Made by a program: the position numbers and the translations under genes. A stretch of 64,000 bases of DNA from an uncultured Gemmatimonadales bacterium (GTDB lineage Bacteria > Gemmatimonadota > Gemmatimonadetes > Gemmatimonadales > Gemmatimonadaceae), in assembly GCA_963701965.1 (NCBI GenBank), contig OY969695.1, positions 1,952,001 through 2,016,000 of the forward strand. Reading direction: 5' to 3'. How positions within the stretch are numbered: the stretch's first letter is position 1; the number at the start of each line of letters is the position of its first letter. Below the pieces are notes generated by a model. That model searched no databases, was not told where the DNA came from, and was given only the letters and a program-made list of their open reading frames with translations. Positions 29,316 to 52,785 of this stretch are shown piece after piece.

Positions 29316-32300
29316 ATGAAACGAAACATGGTGCGCATGGTGGGACTCATGGCGGTCGCGTGGAGCGCGGCCGGTGCGCAGGAGGGCGGCCGGATCACGG
29401 GCCACGTGCTGGATGGCGCGGATAAGGTGCCTCTTTCGGCGGCCCAGGTTTTGGTCAGCGGCACGACGATCGGTACGATCACGAACGACAGTGGGACGTT
29501 CAACCTGCGCGTGCCGGCGGACGGCAAGAGCCTGACGGTCCGCCGCATCGGCTATCGGCAGTCGATTATCCCGTTGGTGGCCGGCCAGGCGGACTACACG
29601 GTCTCTCTGGACCGCGACGTGCTCCGTCTCGAGCAGCAGGTCATCACGGGCGTGGCGACAACCGTTTCGTCCAAGAACGCGGCGAACGCGGTGGCGGTGG
29701 TCTCCGCGGCGGCGGTCAACGAGGTGCCTGCCCCGACGATGGAGAACGCGATCCAGGGCAAGGTGCCCGGCGCGCTCATCGCGTCGAACAACGGCGGCGC
29801 CCCGGGCGGCGGACTCCAGATTCAGGTCCGCGGCGTGACGTCGATCAACGGCAACGCCTCACCGCTCTACGTCATCGACGGCGTCATCGTCAACAACGAG
29901 ACGGTGAACCCCGACGCCAACGCCATCAGCCAGTCGGGCGGCGGCACGACGTCGACCGGTCAGGCGGCATCGGCGGCGCCGAGCCGTGAGGACAACGGCG
30001 TCAATCGTATCGCCGACATCAACCCCGAGGACATCGAGTCCATCGAAGTCCTGAAGGGCGCGTCGGCGTCGGCCATTTACGGCTCCAAGGCCTCCGCGGG
30101 CGTGATCGTCATCACCACGAAGAAGGGCACCGCAGGCAAGCCGCGGTGGGACTTCAACTCGCAGCTCGGCCACTTCTCGCTGGAAAACACCCTGCCGATT
30201 CGCTCGTTCCCAACGCTCGGCAGCGCGCAGCTTTGGTATATCACCGACATCAAGGGCAAGGACGCCGCCACACCCGCGGCGACCGCGGACAGCGCGTTCA
30301 TCAAGACGGTCTACGCCGGTCCGCAGGATTACCAGAGCCAGTTGTTCGGCAATCCGCAGCTCTCGTACTCGTCCAACCTGAGCGTGTCCGGTACGGCCGG
30401 CCAGACGCAGTATTTCGTGTCCGGCCTCACCAAGTACGACAACGGCATCCAGGACAACACGGGTTACAACAAGCAGTCGATCCGCGCCAACGTCACGCAG
30501 GAGTTCAGCTCGAACTTCCACGTGTCGGCGAACCTGAACTACATCCACGACGTCACGCGGCGTGGTATCACGGGCAACGACAACATCGGCATCAGCCCGT
30601 ACAACGTCCTCTCGACGACGCCGCAGTTCGTCAGCCTGAATCATCAGGCCGCGAACGGCACGTGGCCGATCAACCCGTTCGGTTCGGCGAACCCGTTTGC
30701 CGACGCCGAGGAGATCGCCACGCCGGAGGCGCTGAGCCGCTTCATCGGCGGTGGCAACGTGAACTGGGACCTGTTCAAGACCGAGCACCAGACGTTGAAC
30801 TTCACGGCGATCGGCGGGGCCGACGTCGCGAACTACACCAGCCTCCTGTTCGCGCCGACCGACCTGCAGGTCGAGCAGTTGATTCCGAACGGTCTCGTGG
30901 GCACCTCGGTGACCAACTCGGCGTCGATCCAGTATTTCAACTACTCGTTGAACCTGAGCCACCACTACACGGGCTTGTCCTTCATGGACATGACCACGAC
31001 CGCGGGCTTCACGCGCGACCGGCGCAGCCTGACGAACCCGGTGACCGTCGGACAGAACCTGTTGGCGGGGGTCAACTCGCCGACGGTCGGCACGGTGCAG
31101 CAGAACTTCTATCAGCACACGCAGCAGCTCGACCAGTCGTTCTACGGCCAAGAGCAGCTGTTGCTCCTCGACCAGCGCCTCGCGCTGACCGGCGGCGTCA
31201 CGGCCGAGCGCTCGACGAACGACGGCAACATCGGACGGTTCTACGCGTATCCGCGCGGGTCGGCGTCGTTCCGGATCCCGCAGATCGCCAGCTTCGTCGA
31301 TGAGTTGAAGCTGCGCTTCGCCTATGGACAGTCGGGGAACCTGCCCCTGTACGGCGCCAAGTACACGCCGTTCAACCCGTCGCAGATCAGCGGCCTGGGC
31401 GGCATCTCGGGCAACCCGAACCACGGCGACCCGACGATCACGCCGGAGCAGGAAACCGAGATGGAGACGGGCTTCGACTTGACGTTCTTCAAGTCACGGG
31501 CGCAGTTCTCCGCGACCGTCTATCAGAAGCAGCTCTCCAACCTGATTCTCCAGGCCAGCGTTGCGCCGTCGCTCGGGTTCGCGACGCAGTTCTTCAACGG
31601 TGGTCAGTTCACGAACCAGGGTATCGAGCTGCAGCTGCAGGCAACACCGATCCAGACGCGTAGCGGCTTCGCGTGGACGTCGAACATCACGTACTCGCGT
31701 AACTACAGCGTCGTGAACTCGCTGCCCACGGCTCCTGGCCCGATCGGCAACACGTTCGGGTTCGGCAACGCGTTCCTCGCGCCCGGCCGCTCCGTCAGCG
31801 AGCTGGTGAATCCGAACATCCTCGGCAAGGACAACCTGCCGATTCAGGTGGGCGACTTCCAGCCGACGTTCCGGATGGACTTCGAAGAAGCGATTTCGTT
31901 TGGTCCGCTCCGCGCCTCTGGCCAGATGGAATGGAGCAAAGGCGGAAGCACGATCAACTTGACGAACCTGTACTTCGACGGCGGCCCGCAGCTCTGGGCT
32001 GACTCGGCGGCGTCCACGAACCGGCTCAATGCGTTCGTGAACGGCCTCACGCCGTATGTGCAGGACGCGACGTTCCTCAAGCTGCGTAACGTCTCGTTGA
32101 GCTACACGTTGCCCAAGGTCACGTACGGCTGGGCGCACGGGAAAATCGCCAGCGCCAAGCTGATTGCCAGCGGTTACAACTTGTTCAGCTGGTTCAAGTT
32201 CCCGGGACTCGATCCTGAAGTCAGCGTCAACGGAAATCAGACAGTCACACGAGGGCAAGACATCACCCCATATCCGCCGGCCCGAAGCTACTTCCTCGGC

Positions 32301-32318
32301 ATCGACCTGGGGCTCTGA
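29316..32318 (+). CDS. SusC/RagA-family TonB-linked outer-membrane protein (copy 2)
   Basis: Close paralogue of 15349-18342; signal peptide begins at ATG 29316 after a GGGGAG Shine-Dalgarno. Confidence 0.93.
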   Translation: MKRNMVRMVGLMAVAWSAAGAQEGGRITGHVLDGADKVPLSAAQVLVSGTTIGTITNDSGTFNLRVPADGKSLTVRRIGYRQSIIPLVAGQADYTVSLDRDVLRLEQQVITGVATTVSSKNAANAVAVVSAAAVNEVPAPTMENAIQGKVPGALIASNNGGAPGGGLQIQVRGVTSINGNASPLYVIDGVIVNNETVNPDANAISQSGGGTTSTGQAASAAPSREDNGVNRIADINPEDIESIEVLKGASASAIYGSKASAGVIVITTKKGTAGKPRWDFNSQLGHFSLENTLPIRSFPTLGSAQLWYITDIKGKDAATPAATADSAFIKTVYAGPQDYQSQLFGNPQLSYSSNLSVSGTAGQTQYFVSGLTKYDNGIQDNTGYNKQSIRANVTQEFSSNFHVSANLNYIHDVTRRGITGNDNIGISPYNVLSTTPQFVSLNHQAANGTWPINPFGSANPFADAEEIATPEALSRFIGGGNVNWDLFKTEHQTLNFTAIGGADVANYTSLLFAPTDLQVEQLIPNGLVGTSVTNSASIQYFNYSLNLSHHYTGLSFMDMTTTAGFTRDRRSLTNPVTVGQNLLAGVNSPTVGTVQQNFYQHTQQLDQSFYGQEQLLLLDQRLALTGGVTAERSTNDGNIGRFYAYPRGSASFRIPQIASFVDELKLRFAYGQSGNLPLYGAKYTPFNPSQISGLGGISGNPNHGDPTITPEQETEMETGFDLTFFKSRAQFSATVYQKQLSNLILQASVAPSLGFATQFFNGGQFTNQGIELQLQATPIQTRSGFAWTSNITYSRNYSVVNSLPTAPGPIGNTFGFGNAFLAPGRSVSELVNPNILGKDNLPIQVGDFQPTFRMDFEEAISFGPLRASGQMEWSKGGSTINLTNLYFDGGPQLWADSAASTNRLNAFVNGLTPYVQDATFLKLRNVSLSYTLPKVTYGWAHGKIASAKLIASGYNLFSWFKFPGLDPEVSVNGNQTVTRGQDITPYPPARSYFLGIDLGL

Positions 32319-32320: not shown

Positions 32321-33886
32321 ATGACACATACGAAACTGCGCGCCTCTTTCCTGGCGCTTGCGGCAGCCGCGGTAGCCTTCACGGCTTGCTCGGATACGAA
32401 CGTCCCATTCTTCACCGCTCCGACCAGCGTGCCGAGCACGCCGCCGGGCGTGCAGAACGGCATGACCGGCTTGTTCGCCGGCTCGCGGAACGATGTCCAG
32501 AGCTTCATTCTGGACATGACCGGGTACGGACGCCAAGGCGCCAACTTCACCAACACCGAGCCGCGGTTCATCACGTATGACCTCGGTGTCGTCCCGATTC
32601 CGTCGCAGAGCGGCACGATCTGGACGAACGCGTTCGCCAATATCCTGCAGGCGCATCAGATCCTCGCGACACTGCCGTCGGTGATTCCGGCATATACGCC
32701 GGCGCAGATCTCGGCGCTGACGGGCGTCGTGCAGACCATGATCGCCTACAACTACATGCACATGCAGATCGACCACGACTCCGGTGGTGGCACGATCCAG
32801 CCGGCCACGACGGCGGCGAACACGCCGCTGCCCGCGGCGCTCTGCAATCAGGACATGTGGAAGTACATCGTGGCGTTGCTCGACTCGGGGAACGCCCAGC
32901 TCAACACCGCTGGTGCCACGCCGATTCCCGTGAAGTTGCCGAACGGCTTCTCCGCGGTGAGTCAGGTTGCTGGACCCAGCACTGCCGCTGGCTCGTTCGC
33001 CGCGTTCAACCGGGCGCTTGCCGGTAAGGCGAACTTCGAGTTGGCGTACGCGCTCGCTCGTGGCCCTGGTGGCTCGGCCCCAACGGCGACCACGCCGGGG
33101 AGCCCCAACGTCGCGGCCCTGACCCGCGCGGATAGTGCGCTCACCAACTCGGCGCTCTACGCGCCGGGCGCCCTGGCGGCTGGACCTGCCGGGAGTTGGG
33201 CGGCCGATGCGCATAGCGTATTCTGGGACTTTTCCGCGACGTCGGGCGATCTCGTGAACCCGATGAATGCGCTGGTCGGAACGTATGTAATGCTCAAAGA
33301 ATTTGTCACGCTCGTCGACACGGCTGACCTGCGGTGGAAAGCGAAGTTCGCGCCGTACCCCGCGACGGTTCAGCAGCCGACGTACGCGCCGGTGGCGGTG
33401 CAGGTGTCCTATGCCATGTACGACCAACCGGGCAGCCTTATCCCGATCGTGCGGAACGAGGGCCTCGTCCTATGGCGTGCCCAGATTCAGCTCGGGCTGG
33501 GGAACTTGGCCACGGCCGCGGCCCTGACCGACCAGGTCCGTACCACGGTTGGTGGGGAGCCAGCGGGAACGACCGGGCCCACCACGGTCAGGAACTCGCT
33601 CGGAACCACGGTCACCTTCGCCAAAGTCGACCCGACCAGCTACACGTCGGTGCGCGACTACATCATGAGGGAACAGCAGGTCTCGACGGCGATCGAGGAT
33701 AACGGCGACCGGACGGCGGCGATTCGCGACTACCGGTTGGAGCTCGTCGCCGATACGACGTGGGATTCGTCGAACCCGACGATCAAGAAAGCAGCACCAA
33801 ACGGCGACCAGCACACGACCGTTGACCCCATCCCGTTCGCCGAGCTCTCGGCGCGCGGCGGAGCGTTTAACAAAACCTGCCCGTAA
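32321..33886 (+). CDS. SusD/RagB-family lipoprotein (copy 2)
   Basis: FTAC lipobox; shares CSDTNVPF, NTEPRFITY and terminal KTCP with copy 1. Confidence 0.85.
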   Translation: MTHTKLRASFLALAAAAVAFTACSDTNVPFFTAPTSVPSTPPGVQNGMTGLFAGSRNDVQSFILDMTGYGRQGANFTNTEPRFITYDLGVVPIPSQSGTIWTNAFANILQAHQILATLPSVIPAYTPAQISALTGVVQTMIAYNYMHMQIDHDSGGGTIQPATTAANTPLPAALCNQDMWKYIVALLDSGNAQLNTAGATPIPVKLPNGFSAVSQVAGPSTAAGSFAAFNRALAGKANFELAYALARGPGGSAPTATTPGSPNVAALTRADSALTNSALYAPGALAAGPAGSWAADAHSVFWDFSATSGDLVNPMNALVGTYVMLKEFVTLVDTADLRWKAKFAPYPATVQQPTYAPVAVQVSYAMYDQPGSLIPIVRNEGLVLWRAQIQLGLGNLATAAALTDQVRTTVGGEPAGTTGPTTVRNSLGTTVTFAKVDPTSYTSVRDYIMREQQVSTAIEDNGDRTAAIRDYRLELVADTTWDSSNPTIKKAAPNGDQHTTVDPIPFAELSARGGAFNKTCP

Positions 33887-33893: not shown

Positions 33894-34504
33894 GTGGGCA
33901 GGTTGCGGAATGCCCTAACCGTAGTAGGCGTGGCGTGCGCGGCCCTCTGGGCCGCGCCGCCCGCCGAGGCGCATAACGCGGCCCGCATAACGCGGCCTCG
34001 CATAACGCGGCCTCGCATAACGCGGCCTCGCATAACGCGGCCTCGCATAGCGCTGGATCCGAGGGGCGCGCGTGTCGCCCGCCGCTGTACAAGATCGACC
34101 TCCTCCCCCTCGATGAATCGGTCGCCGGCAAGGGTGTCGCCAGCATAGAGCCCGCCGTGACCCCGTTCGGGATGGCCCTGACCCCCGACGGACATGTGAT
34201 CTACGACGTCCACATCTCGCTCTCCAACCTGCCGCCGGCCTCCGAGTTGGGCGGCGCCGAATACGTTGCGTGGGTGACCTCGCCGGATCTCGACCGCGCC
34301 GAGCGGTTGAGCCCCATCGGCCACGATGGCACGGCGCAGGGACGCGTGACGATGAACAAGTTCATCATCTTGGTCACCGCCGAGCACACGCCGGTCGGGG
34401 CCCATTGGACCGGCCGCGTCGCGCTGCGCGGGTTCTCGCCAAGCACCTTTCTGCAGAACTTCTCCAGCGAAGAACTGTTCCTGGGCGGCACACCGCCATG
34501 CTGA
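33894..34504 (+). CDS. Small secreted accessory protein with (HNAAS)n repeat; 1-bp frameshift in the first repeat unit
   Basis: Signal peptide from GTG 33894; the downstream frame (RPPLYKIDLLP...DGHVIYDV...YVAW...NKFIILVTAE) matches the paralogue at 45548-46030. Confidence 0.7.
33971..34050 (+). repeat. Tandem 15-bp repeat GCATAACGCGGCCTC (one 14-bp unit, four full units, one partial)
   Basis: Read directly from the sequence. Confidence 0.95.
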
Positions 34505-36168
34505 GGCGCCTGTTGGCGATCGCATGGCTGCTGCCGATCGCCGTTCGGGCGCAACAGATGTCCGGCATGGACATGTCCGGTATGGATATGTCGGGCGACA
34601 CCGCGGCCGACCGCGCGCCGCCGATGCCCAAGGGCATGCCGATGATGCCGGGCATGGTCGGGAAAGGTCCGAGCATCGTCCAGTATCTGCCGGCCGACGC
34701 CGCCAGCATCAAAGCCGCCGTCCCGAGCACCGTGGTGACGGTCGCCAACGGCGACACGTTCAACCTAGACGCCAGCCTCGTCCGCCGAACGATCAACGGT
34801 CGCACGTTCGTCATGTACGGGTTCAACGGACAGTACCCGGGTCCGATGATCCGGGTGAAACAGCAGTCCACGATCACCGTGCGGTTCACCAATCACTTGG
34901 ACATGCCGTCGTCCGTGCACTGGCATGGCATTCGGTTGGACAACCAGTACGACGGCGCCGTCGGCGTCACGCAGGACGCGGTCCCACCCGGCGGGACCTT
35001 TGTCTACACGGTCCGGTTTCCGGATGCGGGTTTGTACTGGTACCACCCCCACGTGCGGGAGGACATCGAGCAGAATCTCGGATTGTACGGGAACCTGCTC
35101 GTCGACTCGCCGGATGCCAACTATTACAACCCCGTCAATGCCGAGCGCGCGCTCATCCTGAGCGATCTCTTGATCGACAAGAAGGGGCTTTTCCCGTACG
35201 GGAAGGACACGCCCGACTTCACGATCATGGGGCGCTTCGGAAACGTGATGCTGGTCAACGGCGAGCCACGGTACGCGCTCACGGCACACAAAGGAGACGT
35301 CGTGCGGCTCATGCTGACCGACGTGTCCAGCACGCGGAGCTACAACCTGAGTCTAGGCGGGGCCAAGCTCAAGCTCGTCGCCGCCGACGTCAGCCGCTAC
35401 GAGCACGAACAGATGGTCGACAACGTGACCATCGTGCCCGCGGAGCGCTACGTCGTGGATGCCAAGTTCGACAGCGCGGGCACCTTCGCGTTGACCAATC
35501 GCGTGCAGGCGCTGAACAACTTCTTGGGCGAGTACTCACCCGAGATCGACACGCTGGCGATCGTGACTGTCGATCCGACTCCGTCGGCGACGAGTTACGC
35601 CAAGGAGTTCGCGACGCTCCGGACCAACGCCGACGTCGCGTCCGAGATCGCGCGGTTCAAGGAGGCTTTCACCAAGGCGCCGGACAAGGAACTGGAGCTC
35701 ACGGTCAACATCCAGGGGCTGCCGACGCCGATCGTGGCGCTGATGGCCATCGACACGTCGTACTACTCGCCCGTCGAGTGGAACGACGGCATGCCCGACA
35801 TGAATTGGGTGTCGACGGCCAAGCAAGTGCGGTGGATCATGCGCGACAAGGCCACCGGCAAGGAAGACATGGACATCGACTGGCACTTCAAGAAGGGCGA
35901 TATGGTGAAGATCCGGATCCATAACGACCCCCAGTCGATCCACCCCATGGGCCATCCCCTGCACTTCCACGGTCAGCGCTTTCTGATCATCTCCCGCAAC
36001 GGCATACCCAACCCGTATCTGGCCTGGAAGGATACCGAGCTCATTCCCGTCGGGGAGACCGTCGACATCCTGCTCGACGCGTCGAACCCCGGGCGCTGGA
36101 TGGCGCACTGCCACATTGCCGAGCATCTCGAGGCCGGCATGCACCTCGTGTTCACCGTGGATCCATAG
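34498..36168 (+). CDS. Three-domain multicopper oxidase with Met-rich N-terminus
   Basis: HWHG, WYHPH, HPLHFHG, HCHIAEHLEAGM; MSGMDMSGMDM after the signal peptide. Confidence 0.93.
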   Translation: MLRRLLAIAWLLPIAVRAQQMSGMDMSGMDMSGDTAADRAPPMPKGMPMMPGMVGKGPSIVQYLPADAASIKAAVPSTVVTVANGDTFNLDASLVRRTINGRTFVMYGFNGQYPGPMIRVKQQSTITVRFTNHLDMPSSVHWHGIRLDNQYDGAVGVTQDAVPPGGTFVYTVRFPDAGLYWYHPHVREDIEQNLGLYGNLLVDSPDANYYNPVNAERALILSDLLIDKKGLFPYGKDTPDFTIMGRFGNVMLVNGEPRYALTAHKGDVVRLMLTDVSSTRSYNLSLGGAKLKLVAADVSRYEHEQMVDNVTIVPAERYVVDAKFDSAGTFALTNRVQALNNFLGEYSPEIDTLAIVTVDPTPSATSYAKEFATLRTNADVASEIARFKEAFTKAPDKELELTVNIQGLPTPIVALMAIDTSYYSPVEWNDGMPDMNWVSTAKQVRWIMRDKATGKEDMDIDWHFKKGDMVKIRIHNDPQSIHPMGHPLHFHGQRFLIISRNGIPNPYLAWKDTELIPVGETVDILLDASNPGRWMAHCHIAEHLEAGMHLVFTVDP

Positions 36169-36184: not shown

Positions 36185-37585
36185 ATGCACAAACGTGTTC
36201 TGATCGCAGCCGCGCTCGTGCCTGTGCTCGCCCTGGCCCAACAAGGTCAGGGGGCGCCCGGCGTGTTGCCCAACGTCAAGAGTGGAGGGAGCACCAATAT
36301 CCATCTCTTGGGTCACGTCCCGTTGGGCGGGTTTTTCCGCGTCATGGACGATGAGATCGAACAGGACCCAGGCCGGCCCTACGCCTACGTATCGCAGGCG
36401 CACGATCGGCCGGGCTTCACGATCATGGACCTGCACGATCTGAATCACATCCACGTCCTGTACAACTGGCGCATCGAGAACGCCGACCTGCACAAAGGAC
36501 TCGGCGGCATGGACGGCAAGTACTTCAAGATCAAGGGCAAGTACTACTACGAGCAGTCTCTGCAGTTCATGCAGGGTGGTCCTGACGCCGATCTCGGCGC
36601 GGTCATCGCCGACGTCACGGGTCTGCCCGACACCAACAAGATCAAGATCGTGGCGCGGCTCCGTGAACCGGACCACCCGGGCGGCTTCCACAATACGTTC
36701 GTCTACAAGCACTCCGACGGGCGCGTCCTCCTGTTCAATACGTTGAACGCGCCGTTCGTCGAGATCTGGGATTTGGAAAAAGTTCTGGCGTCACCCGATA
36801 ACCCGAAGGCCGGTCTGATTGGACAGGTGCCGGTCCCCGGGGGAGAATCGAACGACCGCATGGGCCGCTACGGCTACCATGACTTCTATCTGGGTTACGA
36901 TCCCGCGACCCACCAGGACAAGTTCTACGGCGCGGGACGCGGTGGGTACTACATCTTCGACGTGACCGATCCCACGCAGCCCAAGCTCCTGACGTCGATC
37001 ACGGGTTCGGCGGGTATCGAGTTCGGTCACACGTTCACGCCGACGCCCGACGGCAAGTACGCGGTCGCCGAGACCGAGTACGAGTACGCGCCGCTCCGCA
37101 TCTTCGATCTGCAGCCGGGCTTGAGCGGTCAGGTGCAGGCCATCACGCGGCCAATCGGCGCCTGGACGGCCGACTGGCACGATCTCGCGCACAACCACGA
37201 GATCCGCTGGCCCTACGTGTTCGTCTCCGCGTACGAAGATGGGCTCCAGATCTTCAATATGATCGATCCCAAGAACCCGGTGACGGTCGGCTGGTACTAC
37301 ACCTGCCAGTGCGCCCATGAGACCGGCTTTGGCGGGATCCCGGCCTGGAACGGCACCAGCGTCGAGAACGGCGCGTTCGGCATCGACATCCGGAACTACG
37401 ACGGCGTGATCATGATCAGCGATGCCAACACCGGGGTATGGTTCTTCAAGTTGGATGGCTTCGACGGATGGAACGGCACCGACTGGGGGATGCCGAACAT
37501 CTCGAGCGTGCAGGACTACGATCACGGACCACCGGGCGCCAGCGGGCAGAAGAAAATGGCGCAGGCCACGCCCGGCGTACAGTAA
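36185..37585 (+). CDS. Secreted LVIVD-like beta-propeller protein with conserved His motifs (copy 1)
   Basis: Strong Shine-Dalgarno AGGAGGAGG; signal peptide; YIFDVTDP and LQIFNMIDP repeats; FHN, YHD, GHT and AHNHE motifs. Confidence 0.7.
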   Translation: MHKRVLIAAALVPVLALAQQGQGAPGVLPNVKSGGSTNIHLLGHVPLGGFFRVMDDEIEQDPGRPYAYVSQAHDRPGFTIMDLHDLNHIHVLYNWRIENADLHKGLGGMDGKYFKIKGKYYYEQSLQFMQGGPDADLGAVIADVTGLPDTNKIKIVARLREPDHPGGFHNTFVYKHSDGRVLLFNTLNAPFVEIWDLEKVLASPDNPKAGLIGQVPVPGGESNDRMGRYGYHDFYLGYDPATHQDKFYGAGRGGYYIFDVTDPTQPKLLTSITGSAGIEFGHTFTPTPDGKYAVAETEYEYAPLRIFDLQPGLSGQVQAITRPIGAWTADWHDLAHNHEIRWPYVFVSAYEDGLQIFNMIDPKNPVTVGWYYTCQCAHETGFGGIPAWNGTSVENGAFGIDIRNYDGVIMISDANTGVWFFKLDGFDGWNGTDWGMPNISSVQDYDHGPPGASGQKKMAQATPGVQ

Positions 37586-37602
37586 CAGGGCTGCTGGGCA
37601 GG

Positions 37603-37638
37603 ACAACGGGCGGCAGAGGGTACTCTGCCGCCCGTTGT
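37603..37638. terminator. Perfect 16-bp stem-loop after the propeller gene (terminator or REP-like)
   Basis: ACAACGGGCGGCAGAG-GGTA-CTCTGCCGCCCGTTGT; no clear U-tract. Confidence 0.6.
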
Positions 37639-37670
37639 GCATCGCGGCACCGTCGCGTTACTTCGACGCC

Positions 37671-39743
37671 ATGCGCGGGCGACTCGCTCGTACTCTGTTG
37701 CTGGTCATCGCCGTCGCCTGGGCCGCCACGGCGCGTGGTCAGGTGTGCGATGCCGGCGACCGCGCGCTCGCCGCGAGCCGCGACCTTTATTGCCTCACGC
37801 TCGTTCCCGCCGCCGGCTTCGACGGCGCGCGCGGACACGTGGAGCTGGGGCGGATCGCCGGACCGTTCACGGTCGCCGTCACCGCCGACGGCAACCCGCT
37901 CTACGAACCGGTCATCACCATCACCGGCCTCTCGCCCACCGCGCGGTACGAAGCCTGGGTTTCACCGCCGACCATGTACCCCATGGAGAGCCTCGGCGCG
38001 GTGACGAACGGCCGCACCAGCCTGCGGCGCGTGGGTATCGACCCATTCGTCCTGCTGGTCAAAGAGGTGCCGAGCGGCCGTCTCGTGCTCCGCGGCCAGT
38101 CGCCCAGTTCGCGGCTCCAGCCCGCCGATTTTCTGCAGTTCGCGGTCGGCGCCGTACCCGACTCCACTCCGCCGCCGCCCGTTGATACCGCGGCGGTCCG
38201 CTGGACGACCGTGCCAATGTCTCCGGGGATCCCGATGCTGGCCGCCGAGATGGCGCTCCGCCCCTCGGTAGCCGCGACGCTCCCCCACCCGGAGGGCCCA
38301 GTGCCCAACGCCCGCCCGCACACGATCGTGCGCCTCGCCGACGGCGACACGTTGCATTTGCGCGCGGGTCTCGTGCACCGGACGATCCGCGGACGGCCCG
38401 CGGTCATGTACGCGTACAACGGTCAGATCCCCGGCCCGCTGATCGTTGTCCCCCAGGGGGCCGAGATCACGGTCGACTTCGCGAATCATCTCGATCAACC
38501 GACGAGCGTGCACTGGCATGGCGTCCGGCTGGACAACGCATCCGACGGCGTCCCGGGGTTGACCCAGCCGCCGATCGCGCCGGGTAGCCACTTCACGTAT
38601 CGCGTGCGGTTTCCCGACGCCGGGACCTACTGGTATCACCCGCACGTGCGCGAGGACACGCAGCAAGATCTCGGACTCTACGGCAACATCGTCGTCGAAC
38701 CGCGCGGCGGCGCGCTACTACCGCGCGAGCAGGTACTCATGCTCGATGACATCTCGGTGACGGCCGACGGCCTCGTGCCTTACGGACGCGACGCCGCGAC
38801 GCACGCGCTCATGGGTCGCTTTGGCAATGTCCTGCTCGTGAACGGGGAACCGGCCTATCATCTCACCGCTCGGCGCGGCGAGGTCGTGCAGTTCCGCCTC
38901 ACGAACGCCTCGAACACGCGCGTCTTCAATCTGTCATTTCCCGGCGCCCGCATGAAGGTCGTGGGCAGCGACGCGGGAATGTTCGAGCGCCCGGAATGGG
39001 TCGAAAGCGTCGTCATCGCGCCCGCCGAGCGGTACATCGTGCAAGTGCGGTTCGACACCCCCGGTCGTGTGCCGTTCGTCAACCGCGTGCGCTCGCTCGA
39101 TCATCTCTTTGGCCGCTTTCTCACGCTGGCCGACACCCTGGGCATCGTCCACGTGCGGTCACCGTCCGTGCCTCGTGACGCGGGCTTCGACCGGCTTGTC
39201 GCCGACCGTCGGATGACCGCCGACATCGAGCGCCTTCGGCCGTATTTCCAGCGGCTACCCGATCACACGCTGCTCCTGACGCTCGAGACCCACGATCTCC
39301 CCTTCGTCACCCGCCAGCTCATGCTGCTCGACTCTGTGTACTTCACGCCTGTGGAGTGGACGGAGAGCATGCCCAACATGAACTGGGCGGCGACCAGCGA
39401 TCAGGTACGCTGGGTGTTGCGCGACCCGGCAACCGGCCGGGAGAACATGGACATCGACTGGACCTTTCGCCGGGACACGGTCATCACGCTGCGGCTGGTC
39501 AACGACCGGAACACGCTCCATGGCATGCAGCACCCGATCCACATCCACGGCCAGCGCTTTCTCGTCCTCGCCGTGAATGGCGTGCCCAATACGAACCTGG
39601 TGTGGAAAGACACCGTCCTGGTGCCGGCGGGAGCGGCCGTGGACATCCTGCTCGACTTGTCCAACCCCGGCCAATGGATGATCCACTGCCACATCGCCGA
39701 GCACCTGACCGCCCAGATGATGGCCGCCTTCACGGTGGAGTGA
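37671..39743 (+). CDS. Fusion of the accessory domain and a multicopper oxidase
   Basis: N-domain PFTVAVTADG..YE...YEAWV..LG resembles the small accessory proteins; C-part has HWHG, WYHPH, HPIHIHG, HCHIAEH...M. Confidence 0.88.
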   Translation: MRGRLARTLLLVIAVAWAATARGQVCDAGDRALAASRDLYCLTLVPAAGFDGARGHVELGRIAGPFTVAVTADGNPLYEPVITITGLSPTARYEAWVSPPTMYPMESLGAVTNGRTSLRRVGIDPFVLLVKEVPSGRLVLRGQSPSSRLQPADFLQFAVGAVPDSTPPPPVDTAAVRWTTVPMSPGIPMLAAEMALRPSVAATLPHPEGPVPNARPHTIVRLADGDTLHLRAGLVHRTIRGRPAVMYAYNGQIPGPLIVVPQGAEITVDFANHLDQPTSVHWHGVRLDNASDGVPGLTQPPIAPGSHFTYRVRFPDAGTYWYHPHVREDTQQDLGLYGNIVVEPRGGALLPREQVLMLDDISVTADGLVPYGRDAATHALMGRFGNVLLVNGEPAYHLTARRGEVVQFRLTNASNTRVFNLSFPGARMKVVGSDAGMFERPEWVESVVIAPAERYIVQVRFDTPGRVPFVNRVRSLDHLFGRFLTLADTLGIVHVRSPSVPRDAGFDRLVADRRMTADIERLRPYFQRLPDHTLLLTLETHDLPFVTRQLMLLDSVYFTPVEWTESMPNMNWAATSDQVRWVLRDPATGRENMDIDWTFRRDTVITLRLVNDRNTLHGMQHPIHIHGQRFLVLAVNGVPNTNLVWKDTVLVPAGAAVDILLDLSNPGQWMIHCHIAEHLTAQMMAAFTVE

Positions 39744-40958: not shown

Positions 40959-40997
40959 CGTTCAAGCGCGGTCCCTAGCGTTCAAAAACAGAAACGG

Positions 40998-41036
40998 AAC
41001 AGGCGGCAGAGCGAACTCTGCCGCCTGTTTTGTTTT
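40998..41036 (+). terminator. Rho-independent terminator
   Basis: 14-bp stem AACAGGCGGCAGAG/CTCTGCCGCCTGTT, CGAA loop, T-rich tail; A-rich left flank suggests bidirectional use. Confidence 0.85.
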
Positions 41037-41075
41037 CGTCTTGGTTCAGATGTAGGGTCGCCTTGCCCTGTTTGA

Positions 41076-44171: not shown

Positions 44172-45548
44172 ATGACGATGCGTCGAATTGCGCTCTGTGG
44201 CATGGTGGTCGCGCTCGCGGCGTGCCGTGATACGACCGTGCCCGATCTCAACAGCGGCAGTGTCAGCGGATTCGAGACGAATCCGACTGCAGATGGCGCC
44301 AACGCCCTCGCCGTCGGTCTCATTCGCGGCGCACGGGACAACAATGCGCTCATCGTCTCGACGATCGGCCCGTTTGGTCGCGAGGGCTACGAGCTGAATC
44401 TGGCTCGCGGCGACCTGCCCGACTACATCATCGGCCCCCTCACACCGGGCACGTTCTACGTTGCCCAGCTCTGGATCGGGGAATACGCCGACCTGCGCTC
44501 GGCGGGCCTTCTCCTCGACAAGGTCGGCAGCATCAGCAACTTGTCGCCGGCGCAGCAGGAGGGGCTGAGGGGCTTTGCCCAGACGATGCAGGCCTACGAC
44601 CTCACGCTCCTGGCGGAGACGCGCGACACGCTAGGCCTGCCGATCGACGTGTACGTCGATCCGACGGGTACACCGGCGCCGGTCGCCACCAAGACGGTCG
44701 TGTACCAGCACATTCTCAATCTGCTCGATTCCGCGTCCACGCACCTGAATGCCGCGGGGAGCGGGTTCTCGATCTCGACGTTAGACCTTGACAAGGCGGG
44801 CTTTGCGGACTTCGACACGCCGAGCACGTTCCTCACGTTCAACCGCGCGCTCCGCGCGCGGGTTGATATTCTCACGAATCAGTATGCCGACGCACTGACC
44901 GACCTCTCCGCATCGTTTCTCACGACTGGTACCGGCTCCCTCAACATCGGTCCCGTGTTCGCGTTCTCGGCGAATTCCGGGGACGAACCGAACCCGCTGT
45001 TTTCACAGTTCCTGTATGCCGAGCCGGATCTCATCACCAACGCGCAGCGACAGGCCGGCGACACGGTGCGGGATGCGCGAATTCTGGCCAAGCTCATCCC
45101 CGCCGTGCAGTCCGCCACGTTGGACGGGGTGACGTCGGACCTCGCGTTCGCGGCCTACCAGAGCCTGGGCGCGCCGCTACCGATCATTCGGAATGAAGAG
45201 CTGATCCTCTTGCGCGCCGAGGCGAACATTGGCCTGGGCAACCTCGGTCCGGCGGTGACCGACCTCAATCTGATTCGCACGCAGTCGGGCGGTCTCGCTC
45301 CGCTCTCCGGAGCGGCGGCGGCCAGCGCCGATTCGCTGCTCGAAGACCTGCTCTACGAGAAACGATACTCGCTGCTGTGGGAGGGCGGACACAACTGGGT
45401 GGACATGCGCCACTATAGCAAGCTGGCCGAGATTCCCAAGGGGCAACTCGCGACCTCGAAGATCTTCACCGTGGTACCGTACCCGATCGAGGAATGCAAC
45501 GCGCGGGTACCGAAGCCCAAGGGCTGCACCAACGACGCAGGGTTGTAA
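44172..45548 (+). CDS. SusD/RagB-family lipoprotein (copy 3)
   Basis: LAAC lipobox; PIIRNEELILLRAEA and EKRYSLLWEGGH.W.DMR motifs. Confidence 0.9.
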   Translation: MTMRRIALCGMVVALAACRDTTVPDLNSGSVSGFETNPTADGANALAVGLIRGARDNNALIVSTIGPFGREGYELNLARGDLPDYIIGPLTPGTFYVAQLWIGEYADLRSAGLLLDKVGSISNLSPAQQEGLRGFAQTMQAYDLTLLAETRDTLGLPIDVYVDPTGTPAPVATKTVVYQHILNLLDSASTHLNAAGSGFSISTLDLDKAGFADFDTPSTFLTFNRALRARVDILTNQYADALTDLSASFLTTGTGSLNIGPVFAFSANSGDEPNPLFSQFLYAEPDLITNAQRQAGDTVRDARILAKLIPAVQSATLDGVTSDLAFAAYQSLGAPLPIIRNEELILLRAEANIGLGNLGPAVTDLNLIRTQSGGLAPLSGAAAASADSLLEDLLYEKRYSLLWEGGHNWVDMRHYSKLAEIPKGQLATSKIFTVVPYPIEECNARVPKPKGCTNDAGL

Positions 45549-46030
45549 TGCTGGCGAAGGGCCGGATCCTGCTGACGCTGGGCGCGCTGTGGCTGGCGCG
45601 CCCAGCGATGTATGCGATTCCACTCATTGCGACGCCCACGGGGACGGGGGCGTCGGGAGTGGCGACGTTGTCGCGTCCCGAGTCGCCGTTCAGTGTCCCG
45701 GTGACGCGGGATGGGCACGTGATCTACAACGTGGCCATCACGGTCCAAGGACTGCCGCCGGCCAGCGCGTTCGACGGCGCGACGACCTACGTCGCCTGGG
45801 CGACCGTTCCCGACCTGTCGCTCGCCCGTAGCCTCGGCCCCATCACGGCCGACGGCAGGGCCAAGGGCCAAGTGGCCTGGAACAAGTTCATCGTGCTGGT
45901 CACGGCCGAAAAGACCGCGGGCGCGCATTGGACCGGACCCATCCTGCTCAAGGGCGTGAGCCCGAGCACGTGGATGCAACGGTTCCAGGCCCACGTCATC
46001 GGGAACGGCGGCAATCCCGACCCGCCATGA
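45548..46030 (+). CDS. Small secreted accessory protein (paralogue of 33894-34504)
   Basis: TAATG and ATGA coupling to both neighbours; DGHVIY, YVAW, NKFIVLVTAE, GAHWTG motifs. Confidence 0.8.
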   Translation: MLAKGRILLTLGALWLARPAMYAIPLIATPTGTGASGVATLSRPESPFSVPVTRDGHVIYNVAITVQGLPPASAFDGATTYVAWATVPDLSLARSLGPITADGRAKGQVAWNKFIVLVTAEKTAGAHWTGPILLKGVSPSTWMQRFQAHVIGNGGNPDPP

Positions 46031-47703
46031 GACGGGTCGTGATGCTCATGACGCTGCTCGCGGCCCGCGTGGGAGCGCAGGACACGTCCATGGCGGGCAT
46101 GCACATGAACATGGACATGCCGGGCATGGGTGGGCACCGGATGCCACCGATGCCCGCGGGCATGCCCATGATGTCCGGCATGGAGGGCGCGGCGCCGCAA
46201 GTAAAAGCATTTCTGCCCGGCGCCGGCGTCGATCCGGCGACCGTACCGGTCGCCCACGCCAGCAAGATCATAGAAGTCGCGAACGGCGACACGCTGGATC
46301 TCGACGCCGGCCTCGTCCGCCGCACGATCAACGGCGCGACCTATACAATGTACGCGTTCAACGGCCAATCTCCCGGACCGTTGATCCGCGTCAAGCAGAA
46401 CGCCACGATCGTCGTCCGGTTCACCAATCACATCGACCTGCCGTCCTCGATCCACTGGCACGGCGTGCGACTGGCCAATGCGTTCGACGGCAGCGTGGGC
46501 ATGACGCAGGCGGCCGTCGCTCCCGGCGGACGCTTCATCTACCAAGTGCACTTCCCCGACGCGGGCCTCTACTGGTACCACTCCCACGTCCGCGAAGATA
46601 TCGAGCAAGGCCTTGGGCTCTTTGGCAACATTAGAGTCGATTCGCCGGACCCGCAGTACTACAGCGCCGTGAACACCGAGTCCACGCTCATCCTGAACGA
46701 CATCCTCGTGGATCCGCACGGGCTCATTCCCTATGGTGGCGAGGCGTCGGACTTCTCCATCATGGGCCGCTTCGGGAATCTGCTGCTGGTGAACGGCGAG
46801 CCCCGCTATCATCTGGCCGTCCACAAAGGCGACGTCGTGCGGTTCTTCCTCACCAACGCCTCCAACGCCCGGAGCTACAACATCGATTTCGGCGGCGCGA
46901 CCCTCAAGGTCGTCGGCACCGACGTCAGCCGCTACGAGCGGGAGATCCCCGTGACCAGCGTCGTCATCGCCCCTGCGCAACGGTTCATCGTCGAGGCGCG
47001 GTTCGACACGGCGGGCCGCTTCGTGCTGGCCAACCGCGTCCAAGCCGTCTCCAATTTCACGGGCGAATACGCGACCGAAGTCGACACGCTGGGGACGATC
47101 GAAGTGTCCCCGCAACCGACGGCGGTGGACCACGGGAAACAGTTCGCCACCCTGCGCGCGTACCCGGAGGTCTCCCACGACATCGATCGCTTCCGTGCCC
47201 AGTTCACCAAACCCGTGGATCACGAGCTCACGCTCACCGTCAACATTCAAGGCCTGCCGCACGATCTCGTGGCGTTCATGGCGATCGACACCATGTACTT
47301 CAACCCCGTGGAGTGGAACGACGGGATGCCCGACATGAATTGGGTGTCCACGGGCAAGGAAGTCCACTGGATCCTGCGCGACGCCGCGACGGGCAAGGAG
47401 AACCTGGACATCGACTGGCACATGCACGCGGGCGACGTCGTGAAGATCCGGCTCCACAACGACGAACGCTCGATGCACCCAATGGCGCACCCGATCCACT
47501 TTCACGGCCAGCGTTTTCTCGTGCTGTCCCGGGATGGCGTGGCGAATACCGACTTGGCCTGGCAGGACACGGAGCTCGTCCCGGTCGGCTCGACCGAGGA
47601 CATCCTGCTGGATGCGTCCAACCCGGGCGTCTGGATGGCCCACTGTCACATCGCGGAACATCTCGACGCCGGTATGCAAATGCGGTTTACCGTCGACCCT
47701 TAG
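46027..47703 (+). CDS. Three-domain multicopper oxidase with Met/His-rich N-terminus
   Basis: HWHG, WYHSH, HPIHFHG, HCHIAEHLDAGM. Confidence 0.93.
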   Translation: MRRVVMLMTLLAARVGAQDTSMAGMHMNMDMPGMGGHRMPPMPAGMPMMSGMEGAAPQVKAFLPGAGVDPATVPVAHASKIIEVANGDTLDLDAGLVRRTINGATYTMYAFNGQSPGPLIRVKQNATIVVRFTNHIDLPSSIHWHGVRLANAFDGSVGMTQAAVAPGGRFIYQVHFPDAGLYWYHSHVREDIEQGLGLFGNIRVDSPDPQYYSAVNTESTLILNDILVDPHGLIPYGGEASDFSIMGRFGNLLLVNGEPRYHLAVHKGDVVRFFLTNASNARSYNIDFGGATLKVVGTDVSRYEREIPVTSVVIAPAQRFIVEARFDTAGRFVLANRVQAVSNFTGEYATEVDTLGTIEVSPQPTAVDHGKQFATLRAYPEVSHDIDRFRAQFTKPVDHELTLTVNIQGLPHDLVAFMAIDTMYFNPVEWNDGMPDMNWVSTGKEVHWILRDAATGKENLDIDWHMHAGDVVKIRLHNDERSMHPMAHPIHFHGQRFLVLSRDGVANTDLAWQDTELVPVGSTEDILLDASNPGVWMAHCHIAEHLDAGMQMRFTVDP

Positions 47704-49127: not shown

Positions 49128-50867
49128 ATGAAACTCTTCTCCCTCCTGGCGCTGGTGCCGCTCGCGACGAGCGGCGCCAGCGCCCGGGCGCAACAGCCGC
49201 GGTTCGAGGTCAGCTTCCCCGCCTCGCTCAACGCGCAGCCCATCACCGGCCGCGTGTTCGTGACGCTGTTCCAGCGCGCCGACATCGAACCGCGCATCGC
49301 CGCCTATCAGTCGGCGCGCTTCCGCATCGGACGCGTCCCGATCTTCTCGGTCGACATCGACCAGCTGGCGCCGGGCAAGGCGGCGATCGTCGACGCCCGC
49401 GCCGCGGGATATCCGCTGGCCAGCCTCCGCGACCTGCCGGCCGGTGACTACTACGCCCAAGCCGTCCTCAACGTCTACACGCAGTACCGCCGGTCCGACG
49501 GTCACACGATCTGGGCCCACCAGGATCACTGGGAGGGCCAGCGATGGGCCTACGCGCCGGGCAATCTGCTCTCGACCCCGTTCAAGGTGCACCTCGATCC
49601 TGCCAAGGGATTCACGGTCACGCTGGCGTTCGACCACGCGATCCCGCCGCTCGAGCCACCGAAGGACACGAAGTGGGTCAAGTGGGTCCGGATCAAGAGT
49701 GACCTGCTCACGAAATTCTGGGGCGTGCCGCAGGAGTTGGGCGCCACGGTGCTCTTGCCCAAGGGGTACGACGAGCATCCGGACGTGCACTACCCGGTGC
49801 TCTATATCCAGACGCATTTCTCGCTCGACCCGCCATTCAATTTCACCGACGACCCGTCACCGCCACCGCCGGGCATTCAGCTGGCGCCGGCGAGCGCGCG
49901 GTCGAACGTCGAATCGGCGCGCCCTTTCGGTGGGGGTGGGAAGAAAGAAACAGGATACGAGTTCTACCAGTCGTGGATCTCCGACGACATGCCGCGGATG
50001 ATCCTCGTCACCTTCCAGCACGTGACGCCGTACTTCGACGACTCGTACGCCGTCAACTCGGCGAACAACGGCCCGTACGGCGACGCGCTCATGCAGGAGC
50101 TGATCCCGTACCTGGAATCGCACTTCCGCATCATCCGGGAGCCGTACGCGCGCGTCCTGACGGGTGGGTCGACCGGTGGGTGGGAATCCCTGGCGCTGCA
50201 GCTCTATCATCCGGACTTCTTCGGCGGCACGTGGACGTTCTACCCCGATCCGATCGATTTCCGGCGCTATCAGATGGTGGACATCTACTCCGACTCGAAC
50301 GCGTTCGTCGTACCGAACGCGGCGCCGGGCGCACCGGAGCGAATGATGCAGATGACGCCCGAGGGGCAGCCCGTGGCCTCGATGCGGGCCATTGCCCAGA
50401 TGGAGGACGTATCGGGTACGCACGGCCGGTCGGCCGCGCAGTTCGACGTGTGGAACGCGGTCTATGGCCCCGTCGGCGCCGACGGGTATCCGCGGCAGGT
50501 GTTCGACTTCCACACGGGAAAAATCGATCACGAGGTCGCGAGCTACATGCGCGACCACGGCTATGACCTCCGCTACTACGCCGAGCAGAACTGGGCCAAG
50601 ATCGGGCCATCGCTCGTCGGCAAGATTCACATGCTCTCCGGCGACATGGATGATTTCATGCTGGCGCCGGCGATCTATCTCATGCAGGACTTCCTCGAGA
50701 GCACGAAGAACCCGTACTACGCCGGAGATTTTCGCTTTGGGCGGCCCATGAAAGGCCATGGTTGGCAGCCCATGACGAACGCCGATCTGATTCGTGAAAT
50801 GGCGGCGCAGATCGCGAAGAACGCCCCCTCCGGCGAATCCACGAGGGCCTGGCGCGATGCACAATAA
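49128..50867 (+). CDS. Secreted alpha/beta-hydrolase (putative esterase)
   Basis: GGSTGG nucleophile elbow, LLPKGY...YPVLY, NSANNGPYG, GDMDD, KGHGW. Confidence 0.8.
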   Translation: MKLFSLLALVPLATSGASARAQQPRFEVSFPASLNAQPITGRVFVTLFQRADIEPRIAAYQSARFRIGRVPIFSVDIDQLAPGKAAIVDARAAGYPLASLRDLPAGDYYAQAVLNVYTQYRRSDGHTIWAHQDHWEGQRWAYAPGNLLSTPFKVHLDPAKGFTVTLAFDHAIPPLEPPKDTKWVKWVRIKSDLLTKFWGVPQELGATVLLPKGYDEHPDVHYPVLYIQTHFSLDPPFNFTDDPSPPPPGIQLAPASARSNVESARPFGGGGKKETGYEFYQSWISDDMPRMILVTFQHVTPYFDDSYAVNSANNGPYGDALMQELIPYLESHFRIIREPYARVLTGGSTGGWESLALQLYHPDFFGGTWTFYPDPIDFRRYQMVDIYSDSNAFVVPNAAPGAPERMMQMTPEGQPVASMRAIAQMEDVSGTHGRSAAQFDVWNAVYGPVGADGYPRQVFDFHTGKIDHEVASYMRDHGYDLRYYAEQNWAKIGPSLVGKIHMLSGDMDDFMLAPAIYLMQDFLESTKNPYYAGDFRFGRPMKGHGWQPMTNADLIREMAAQIAKNAPSGESTRAWRDAQ

Positions 50868-52785
50868 CACACTCGTCATTCTCGCCCTCTCGGCCGTGGC
50901 GCTGCGTGCCAACGCGCAGGGGCCACTGTCCCCAGAGGAGCTCACCAACATTCGATCCGTCGTGGGCACGGCGGCGCCGCAATGGTCGCCCGATGGGTCC
51001 CGTTTGATGTTCGCCTCACCCCTCGGCGGGTCGGACCTGTGGACCATCCCCGCGACGGGTGGTTTCCCGGTGCCGCTCGACGTCGACATGGGCGAGGTCG
51101 CATTTCTGCAGGGACACCAGCCGACGTTCTCGCCCGACGGAAAATGGATCGCCTATATCTCCAACAAGACGGGCGCGGCGGAGATGTTCGCGACGTCGCT
51201 CGAGGATGGACGGGCGATCCAGCTGACGCATCTCGGGGCCCGCATCAATTCGTACTCCTGGTCGCCGGACAGCCGGTGGATCGCCGTCGCCAATGATCGC
51301 TCCGGGAGCTACGACATTTATAAGGTCGCGGTGCCGACGGGAGCCATCACCCGCCTGACCACGGATACCCGATATGAGGTGTATCCGTCGTGGACGCCGG
51401 ACAGCAAGCGCATCGTCTACGTCCGACTCGATGATCGCTGGCTGGACCATGACGTGCTGACGATCGACGCCGACGGCGGACGGGTCCCGCAGGTGGTGGT
51501 CAAGGACACGGACTTCTTCGACTACGGCGCCGGCCAGACGTTCGGGTACCCGCAGATCTCGCCCGACGGGTCGACGCTGCTCTTTCGCTCCCAACGCAGC
51601 GGCTGGATCAACTACTGGACGGTGCCGCTGGCCGGCGGGACGCCCAAGCTGCTGGCCCCGGAGGCGGCGAATCAAAACGGCGCCCACTGGAGCCCGGACG
51701 GCAAGTCAATCCTGTACGTCGCCCTGTGGAACGGCACGCAGGACCTTCGCGTGGTCGCCGCCAGCGGCGGCACGCCGCGCGTGCTCGTCAAACCCGCCGA
51801 CCAGGGATACATCGATAACGCCTCCTGGTCCCCGGATGGCGCGCACGTCAGCTACACGATGGCCACGACGACGGCGCCCGCGGACCTGTACGTGGTGGCC
51901 GCCGCCGGCGGCACGCCTAATCGTCTCACGATCTCCGTGGCGCCGTCGTTTCGCGACGCGGCGCTGATCGTGCCGAAGAAGATTCACTACAAAGCCGTGG
52001 ACGGCGTCACCACGGCGGCCTACCTCTACGAGCCGCGGCTCGCCGCGGGCCAGAAGGCGCCGGGCATTCTCCTGATCCACGGGGGACCGACCAGCTCGTG
52101 GAACGACACGTATCAGGTCCAGGCGCAGTTCTTCACCATGCGGGGCTACGCGGTACTGCTGCCGAATATCCGGGGCAGCTCGGGTTATGGCAAACCGTTC
52201 GAGGACTCGAACAACGGGTGCTGGGGCCGGTGCGACCTCAAGGACGTCGAGGGCGGCGTCGCTTATCTCAAGACGCTCCCGTACATTGATGCGGCGCACA
52301 TGGGCATCACCGGCACCAGTTACGGCGGGATCATGACGCTGGACGCCGCGGCGTTCGCGCCCGGGCTCTTTCAAGCGGGCATCGCGGCGTCGGGCTATGG
52401 GGACTGGCTGGCGTTCACCGATGAGCAGGAGATGCGCCACATCAAGCTGCTGCACTACGAGCTGGGCTATCTCCCGCAGGCCGAGAAGCTGTACCGGAAT
52501 CTGTCGGCGATCTACTACATCGACTCGATCCAGACGCCGCTCTTCCTGGTGCACGGCGAAGGCAAGTCCCTGCCGCGGTCCGACGCGTCCAAGATCTTCG
52601 TCGATCGGATGGAGATGAAGTACAAGCCCGTGCGGTACAAGACCTACCCGAACGAGAACTACTACATCCAGAGCGCCGCGAACATCCGGGTGCTCATGGT
52701 GGACATGCTGGCGTTCTTCGAGCAATACTTGCGCGATCCGGGGAGCGAGACGGCGACGGCGTCGGGTCTTTCACCGCATCGTTAG
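50857..52785 (+). CDS. S9 (prolyl oligopeptidase-like) homologue with WSPDG propeller repeats; catalytic Asp and His not conserved
   Basis: WSPDG repeats, IHGGP, NIRGSSGYG, GTSYGG. Confidence 0.85.
   Translation: MHNNTLVILALSAVALRANAQGPLSPEELTNIRSVVGTAAPQWSPDGSRLMFASPLGGSDLWTIPATGGFPVPLDVDMGEVAFLQGHQPTFSPDGKWIAYISNKTGAAEMFATSLEDGRAIQLTHLGARINSYSWSPDSRWIAVANDRSGSYDIYKVAVPTGAITRLTTDTRYEVYPSWTPDSKRIVYVRLDDRWLDHDVLTIDADGGRVPQVVVKDTDFFDYGAGQTFGYPQISPDGSTLLFRSQRSGWINYWTVPLAGGTPKLLAPEAANQNGAHWSPDGKSILYVALWNGTQDLRVVAASGGTPRVLVKPADQGYIDNASWSPDGAHVSYTMATTTAPADLYVVAAAGGTPNRLTISVAPSFRDAALIVPKKIHYKAVDGVTTAAYLYEPRLAAGQKAPGILLIHGGPTSSWNDTYQVQAQFFTMRGYAVLLPNIRGSSGYGKPFEDSNNGCWGRCDLKDVEGGVAYLKTLPYIDAAHMGITGTSYGGIMTLDAAAFAPGLFQAGIAASGYGDWLAFTDEQEMRHIKLLHYELGYLPQAEKLYRNLSAIYYIDSIQTPLFLVHGEGKSLPRSDASKIFVDRMEMKYKPVRYKTYPNENYYIQSAANIRVLMVDMLAFFEQYLRDPGSETATASGLSPHR

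Follow-up and report, generated by a model that had tools for sequence, protein, structure and literature searches.

Gene context of an accessory protein, multicopper oxidase and propeller triplet in Gemmatimonadota and its occasional link to SusCD importers

A triplet of genes, encoding a small accessory protein, a multicopper oxidase (MCO) and a secreted beta-propeller with a ring of histidines, recurs across the phylum Gemmatimonadota, and in a minority of loci it stands behind a SusC/SusD importer pair. Here, we describe this triplet starting from a window of 64,000 nucleotides (GenBank assembly GCA_963701965.1, contig OY969695.1, positions 1,952,001 to 2,016,000 of the forward strand) of an uncultured Gemmatimonadales bacterium whose genome is a single contig of 5.1 Mb. 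The labels on close homologs read Gemmatimonadaceae or Gemmatimonadales. In the window the order SusC, SusD, accessory gene, MCO and propeller is present twice (Table 1), and comparison with other genomes reveals that the conserved unit is the triplet and not the five-gene operon. We tentatively read the five-gene unit, with a confidence that falls somewhat short of an even chance, as a non-glycan SusCD importer joined to a phylum-wide triplet, which would act jointly in the periplasm, first cleaving and afterwards oxidising a non-sugar compound that has been imported. Whatever in this account goes beyond gene context and predicted folds is what we infer from them.

An earlier note, made from the sequence of the window, had claimed this twofold order with gaps or overlaps of at most 16 bp, and the coordinates obtained by translation and mapping of starts agree with it. 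The junctions lie between -7 and +16 bp, with successive values of 2, 7, -7 and 16 bp in copy 1 and of 3, -1, -4 and 10 bp in copy 2, where an esterase (PF00756) and an S9 peptidase follow in close coupling and take the run to position 52785. The claim that divergent importer pairs have kept the same cargo is likewise borne out: between the copies identity is 37% for SusC and 27% for SusD, versus 63% for both the MCO and the propeller, and the accessory proteins are 49% identical. A scan for sigma-70 promoters returned counts at chance level.

How widely is the triplet kept? Our survey set comprised 401 genomes of the phylum, including the unpublished and accessory-positive G012. The accessory profile matches 219 of these genomes and the propeller profile 143, and all 143 propeller-bearing genomes are also accessory-positive, where 78 would be expected under independence, a figure that treats related genomes as independent although they are not. 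For gene order we inspected 80 regions around accessory matches, picked from the best 150 of 358 with longer contigs favoured. Since the profile was built from close relatives of the window's own proteins and the matches were ranked by likeness to them, sampling bias would favour the arrangement of the window. The regions contain 83 accessory copies (67 standalone and 16 fused), and in 81 of them the accessory gene leads into an MCO gene or is fused to it. Standalone copies are followed by an MCO in 65 of 67 cases (in the other two the contig ends or an insertion of 4 kb intervenes), and the distance from accessory stop to MCO start is at most 5 nt in 55 of 63. A propeller adjoins 59 of the 67 standalone copies, 41 times upstream and 19 times downstream, with one copy having both.

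The fused copies have a different third member. A secreted gene of the amidohydrolase superfamily comes next in 15 of 16, a propeller adjoins none of the 16 and SusD is near none of the 16; the fusion at 675 kb of the window's own genome is also followed by the amidohydrolase. Among the matches listed (423 found), 119 of 120 longer proteins with the accessory domain contain MCO Pfam domains, and their source labels name Gemmatimonadota, Rhodothermales/Bacteroidetes and Gammaproteobacteria. The range outside Gemmatimonadota is taken from such labels and from named loci of Rhodothermales/Bacteroidota, and in Rhodothermales we find propeller arrays that end in accessory and MCO genes. Propeller paralogs stand in tandem, about 5 to 9 at a time, in Gemmatimonadota as well as in Rhodothermales (surveyed loci L062, L086, L094, L105 and L110); some of these arrays end in an accessory-MCO pair, and one genome has many of them. 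None of the titles and abstract openings covered by our literature search, which reached few subscription journals, describes the module.

The five-gene operon, as a unit of the phylum, can be ruled out, as SusCD accompanies 5 of the 83 accessory copies and accessory and MCO genes accompany none of 40 SusD2-like loci. The former count refers to a SusD on the same strand no more than 8 kb upstream, and SusD is directly upstream in 3 of the 67 standalone copies. The latter refers to 40 further high-ranking loci from the best 150 of 246 in a search with SusD2, a set that leaves out loci already surveyed, among them the linked L111, L112 and L116 and those in L070, L123 and L160; it contains an accessory or MCO gene in 0 of 40 loci and a propeller in 1 of 40. 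An S9 peptidase or esterase stands by 13 of these 40 loci, compared with 1 of 73 accessory loci that lack SusD. The earlier note had named a triplet rarely linked to SusCD elsewhere as what would refute its reading; at the level of the phylum the count of 5 in 83 largely shows this, and the reading is not supported as a general rule.

The SusCD link is nonetheless real and old and probably arose at least twice, yet it is a minority state. The arrangement of SusC2, SusD2, accessory, MCO and propeller is retained in four of five genomes of the same genus, in L116, which belongs to another family, and in L081, and both SusCD types of the window are found ahead of accessory and MCO genes in other genomes. 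In the window's own genome three of the six accessory-MCO loci lie behind SusCD. The third of these (G000:C1:1730188-1743065) runs through amidohydrolase, extracytoplasmic function (ECF) sigma factor, FecR, SusC, SusD, a frameshifted propeller, accessory, MCO and propeller. In a FastTree phylogeny of 80 MCO rows, MCO2 groups with L111 and L112, both with SusC2-type importers, and the nearest rows to MCO1 are L113 and L114, whose adjoining SusD is of the SusD1 type. The SusCD-linked MCOs of the sample, including that of L116, form a single clade of seven rows (support 84), with the exception of the own-genome paralog at 1.73 Mb (1733k), which falls in a different MCO clade from those of the window. 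A recent tandem duplication is ruled out as the origin of the two copies: SusC1 and SusC2 sit in separate clades of a quick tree, and MCO1 and MCO2 are each nearer to relatives in another genus with the same SusCD type than to each other. The genome also holds a degraded propeller-accessory-MCO locus with many frameshifts (G000:C1:470272-476471), downstream of a DUF305 gene and a gene for a 620-aa lipoprotein-like protein.

That nearly all SusCD-linked MCOs share one clade, and that accessory and MCO genes are absent from the 40 further SusD2-like loci, would also suit an incidental neighbourhood, in which one or two insertions placed the triplet downstream of a highly expressed SusCD operon, in an ancestor shared by a few genera, and descent has kept it there without functional coupling; the genome, with about 20 SusC genes, offers many targets for such an event. 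We consider this improbable, because junctions of the translational-coupling type are kept with two different SusCD types in three or more genera from at least two families, because the 1733k paralog, of another MCO clade, also lies behind SusCD, and because propellers without an MCO adjoin SusCD in other genomes as well. The earlier idea of a utilisation locus stands in part: a locus of non-glycan type is plausible, as it recurs in other genomes and in the third own-genome copy behind ECF sigma factor and FecR, and it does not extend to a rule for the triplet.

Both SusC1 and SusC2 pass the TIGR04056 and TIGR04057 cut-offs, which places them in the SusC/RagA class. SusD2 exceeds the PF07980 cut-off and matches SusD structures in the PDB, and SusD1, which has no Pfam or NCBIfam match, is assigned through its homology to SusD2 only; reading of its sequence reveals a lipobox-like AFTAC. 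No gene between 29316 and 53356 has a Pfam or NCBIfam match to a glycoside hydrolase or polysaccharide lyase family, so that the region does not qualify as a glycan-type polysaccharide utilisation locus (PUL). In the quick tree (40 rows) SusC1 clusters with two paralogs of its own genome, neither of them with the triplet, and SusC2 belongs to another clade. A third SusC/SusD pair, also without the triplet, occupies positions 15349-19816, 10 kb upstream, with 65% and 52% identity to SusC1 and SusD1, which brings the region to three SusCD pairs. A crude gene call showed clear co-oriented cargo for few SusCD pairs of the genome, which also encodes eight paralogs of the PF00756 esterase.

PMC7782687 describes PULs and the oligopeptide-binding RagAB and Bt2261-64. 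The loci of the window share with such Bacteroidota SusCD loci the SusC/RagA transporter and SusD-like lipoprotein followed by co-oriented secreted enzymes and, in one own-genome paralog, the ECF sigma factor and FecR. They differ in their Gemmatimonadota host, in the lack of a glycoside hydrolase and in a cargo of MCO, partner protein and His-ring propeller that mostly occurs without SusCD.

The propeller is predicted to be seven-bladed, as the model of propeller 2 is of high confidence (predicted local distance difference test, pLDDT, 93.5; predicted template modelling score, pTM, 0.93) and its seven-bladed structural matches reach Z of about 31. His74, His140, His210, His260, His314 and His316 are kept in 216-234 of 239 propellers, with several Asp and Glu residues likewise conserved at about 90-98%, and in each of blades 2-6 conserved histidines open the first strand or sit close to its beginning, with conserved Glu and Asp near blade starts too. 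In a sequence search of the PDB the propeller profile has a single match, the phosphotriesterase Sb-PTE of Sphingobium sp. TCM1 (5hrm, E 0.007; 5ioj, E 0.012), and 5hrm also has the highest query TM-score (0.62) among the Foldseek matches listed. Sb-PTE carries a binuclear metal site in a seven-bladed propeller. The window propeller is 13% identical to it, and the two are candidate relatives. Two VIA searches, with mostly generic WD40-type propellers in their top 50 rows, do not contain Sb-PTE in those rows, which is neutral with respect to kinship. The propeller is likely a metal-dependent hydrolase; since the third slot of the module is held either by the propeller or, in the fused forms, by an amidohydrolase, the propeller may well be a hydrolase too. 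It also resembles the LVIVD-repeat and choice-of-anchor B propellers (PF08309, TIGR04312): its Atlas neighbours are LVIVD clusters (score 0.95-0.97) and 94 of 105 propeller members match TIGR04312 weakly, the window propellers with about 23 bits versus a cut-off of 100. We know of no established function for these families.

The accessory protein is predicted to be a ligand-free barrel resembling Cu/Zn superoxide dismutase (SOD). The model of accessory protein 2 has a pLDDT of 83.8, and the top 8 rows of its VIA search are all Cu/Zn-SOD (best Z 8.8, root-mean-square deviation 2.7 over 100 aligned residues). The second domain of the copper chaperone CCS ranks below them, and Foldseek agrees weakly on the SOD fold (E about 0.005). 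Although the best structural matches are SOD1-family barrels, across 84 accessory sequences no His is conserved at the 90% level and neither is any Met or Cys conserved, and the protein is therefore unlikely to be a metal carrier or an active SOD. Unlike these enzymes it is tied to an MCO, and the accessory-MCO fusion suggests that it may be a docking or folding partner of the oxidase. An RskA_C lead is weak: one of 57 members reaches E 0.002, and the corresponding Atlas match scores 0.83 with the family on 35% of that cluster.

Accessory gene 1 is interrupted: near 33983, within a 15-nt tandem repeat that encodes (HNAAS)n (window positions 33970-34050), the reading frame shifts by one base. 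The frameshift may reflect an assembly error or a slippage-prone tract; an assembly error is plausible, as several other SusC genes of the genome are likewise split. Contigs of one sequencing run (share 0.09) do not bridge the site. On metagenome contig L231 the order is unchanged, with SusD1 at 65% identity, an intact accessory gene 1 at 66% and the beginning of MCO1 at 79%; the signal peptide of this accessory ortholog matches that of accessory gene 1 and the repeat is absent.

MCO1 and MCO2 each contain all three Cu-oxidase Pfam domains. The copper motifs of MCO1 read HWHG, WYHPH, HPLHFHG and HCHIAEHLEAGM, and 11 Met fall within its first 65 residues. Across 77 MCO sequences the copper-binding His and Cys are invariant or at least 90% conserved, with the axial Met present. 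A Met- and His-rich N-terminus is common: 108 of 119 standalone MCOs and 12 of 17 fused ones have at least 5 Met there. These two sets overlap in loci, and the median is 9 Met. In the PDB, laccase 4f7k matches best by sequence. With CueO, PcoA, CopA and the Lac15-type laccases (PDB 4f7k, 6vox) the MCOs share three cupredoxin domains, full T1, T2 and T3 motifs, the axial Met and the Met-rich segment. Their scores are far below the family cut-offs, however, with 122-170 bits versus 525 (CueO) and 479 (CopA). A twin-arginine export signal is typical of CueO and CopA oxidases; here, the strict motif occurs in none of 63 MCO N-termini and a loose motif in 5 of 63 by regular expression only, which suggests Sec export with copper loading in the periplasm. 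Further differences are the constant accessory partner or fusion and the lack of copper-efflux genes among the flanking genes scanned.

Could the triplet instead serve metal homeostasis? It might constitute a periplasmic metal-handling unit in which the MCO is a cuprous (or Fe or Mn) oxidase and the propeller binds or stores copper, protecting or metallating neighbouring secreted metalloenzymes, with SusCD merely sharing the transcript. The conserved Met/His-rich N-termini fit this well, and so do the best NCBIfam matches of the MCOs (CueO and CopA, though far below cut-off), the resemblance of the accessory fold to SOD and CCS domain II, and MCO neighbours that are often metalloenzyme-like (amidohydrolase, bicupin). 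To examine the context, 118 of the 132 nearest flanking genes (crude caller) were scanned, the 14 omitted being mostly amidohydrolases and near-duplicates. DUF411 was present in three, all beside loci of one genus, CtaG in one and cytochrome c in one, and in the window's own genome the degraded locus at 0.47 Mb is preceded by DUF305 at a distance of about 2 kb. However, none of the 118 contains a copper ATPase, Cus, HMA or SCO domain, no heavy-metal ATPase of the genome comes closer than about 45 kb to its six MCO loci, and the accessory protein lacks conserved His, Met or Cys. Six paralogs, one of them under the control of a sigma factor/FecR-SusCD system, also suit substrate diversity better than detoxification. 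Overall, we regard metal handling as a doubtful explanation that deserves serious weight.

The esterase downstream of copy 2 bears on another alternative. PF00756 includes Fes-type siderophore esterases. SusCD could import a metal chelate, the esterase or propeller would open the chelator and the MCO would oxidise the freed metal, and TonB-dependent importers of copper and chalkophores are known (PMC7558416). This seems quite unlikely, given that the transporters are of the SusC/RagA class and not of the siderophore or OprC class, that the PDB matches of the esterase are an 'esterase' and feruloyl esterases, and that the SusCD link is rare and uses two unrelated SusCD types. Import of a metal complex, one of the options raised in the earlier note, finds no direct support.

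In the interpretation that we tentatively favour, SusCD would import a peptide-like or ester- or amide-linked compound and the propeller would act on it as a metal-dependent hydrolase. The MCO is probably Sec-exported and would receive its copper in the periplasm, with the accessory protein as a partner in docking or folding, and its Met-rich tail would bind Cu(I). With O2 as oxidant, it would act on a phenol or amine set free beforehand or on a metal in reduced form. The triplet would have been recruited in this lineage into SusCD loci of non-glycan type, whose cargo elsewhere is peptidases and esterases. The oxidase, earlier proposed as the processing enzyme of the locus, would probably not fill that role alone, as it has a constant companion that is likely a metallohydrolase, and an S9 peptidase or esterase is usual with such SusCDs. 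Several observations weigh against this interpretation. Sb-PTE is a weak match, ranking tenth by Foldseek E-value among generic WD40 propellers, and the 5hrm alignments are partial. The match of the accessory protein to the SOD fold is close to background level (Z 8.8; Foldseek E about 0.005), and accessory gene 1 is frameshifted in the assembly. The Met-rich MCO tails suit a cuprous oxidase as well as an oxidase of organic substrates. Finally, SusCD is missing upstream of 78 of the 83 accessory copies, which indicates that the module works without import.

Between the two five-gene runs lie a fused accessory-MCO gene, whose N-terminal accessory domain is recognised by hhalign with a probability of 99.5 and E 1e-22, and a bicupin gene. 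Two related strong hairpins flank this pair; their core palindrome occurs genome-wide at those two sites only (the second at about 41000), and with two copies in the genome a REP-like repeat family is ruled out. The hairpin pair possibly marks an inserted unit of fused MCO and bicupin, and the bracketing hairpins suggest three transcription units. Membership of the bicupin in the module is ruled out, as it does not stand beside the module in L036-L110 or L111-L190. Among the other genes of the window, a DUF5916 gene (26713-29073, minus strand) is divergent from SusC1, with DUF5916 homologs also in four accessory loci elsewhere, a DinB-family gene (52847-53356) comes right after the terminal hairpin of the operon, and a gene for a LigD-type DNA ligase is located at 6170-8881.

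Table 1. Features of the two five-gene runs and of the interval between them (window coordinates)
Feature	Position	Strand	Basis or remark
SusC1, SusC/RagA TonB-dependent transporter	29316..32318	+	1000 aa; TIGR04056 440.6 bits, cut-off 368
SusD1, SusD-like lipoprotein	32321..33886	+	521 aa; SusD2 homology 27%, E 4e-26
Accessory gene 1, frameshifted	33894..34504	+	signal peptide and body in separate frames
MCO1, three-domain multicopper oxidase, Met-rich N-terminus	34498..36168	+	556 aa; Pfam Cu-oxidase, _2, _3
Propeller 1, secreted His-ring beta-propeller, LVIVD/choice-of-anchor-B-like	36185..37585	+	466 aa; 63% to propeller 2
Strong hairpin, possible terminator	37592..37649	+	z -6.1, 0/200 shuffles equally stable
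Fused accessory-MCO gene	37671..39743	+	690 aa; hhalign, Cu-oxidase domains, copper motifs
Oxalate-decarboxylase-family bicupin, twin-arginine-like leader	39786..40958	+	TIGR03404 366.9 bits, cut-off 254
Terminator-like hairpin with T-run, 5' of SusC2	40985..41042	+	z -5.5
SusC2	41220..44168	+	982 aa; TIGR04056 458.7 bits
SusD2 lipoprotein	44172..45548	+	458 aa; PF07980 29.8 bits, over cut-off; PDB SusD homologs
Accessory gene 2, predicted SOD/CCS-domain-II-like beta-barrel	45548..46030	+	160 aa; model pLDDT 83.8
MCO2, Met-rich N-terminus	46027..47703	+	558 aa; Pfam, PDB match, copper motifs
Propeller 2, seven-bladed (predicted), conserved His and acidic residues	47714..49120	+	468 aa; model pLDDT 93.5
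Secreted PF00756 esterase, common partner in SusD2-type loci	49128..50867	+	Pfam
Secreted S9 peptidase with PD40 propeller, common partner in SusD2-type loci	50857..52785	+	Pfam

Gemmatimonadota are abundant and mostly uncultured in soil and sediment. In one soil metagenome 13.5% of the bacterial laccase genes were assigned to Gemmatimonadales (PMC12045287). All six MCO genes of the genome described here belong to the accessory-linked family and, together with the presence of the accessory in 219 of 401 genomes, this raises the possibility that the module is the main laccase-like system of the phylum. A more specific proposal, which we put forward as conceivable though on balance doubtful, is a periplasmic copper oxidase of a kind not described before, with two subunits: the Sec-exported MCO and the accessory protein, whose ligand-free SOD-like barrel would dock on the enzyme or mature it. 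A metallohydrolase, exchangeable between propeller and amidohydrolase, would work in series with it, and some Gemmatimonadaceae would have wired this system to dedicated SusCD importers for the oxidative use of aromatic or modified-peptide soil organic matter.

In conclusion, new here are the predicted fold of the accessory protein, the accessory-MCO fusion with its swap to an amidohydrolase, the Sec-type leader of the MCOs and a measure of how rare the SusCD link is. The gene context supplies testable partners for the laccase-like system of this phylum and, if the coupling to SusCD is functional, SusCD loci would extend past the hydrolysis of glycans and peptides to oxidative processing.

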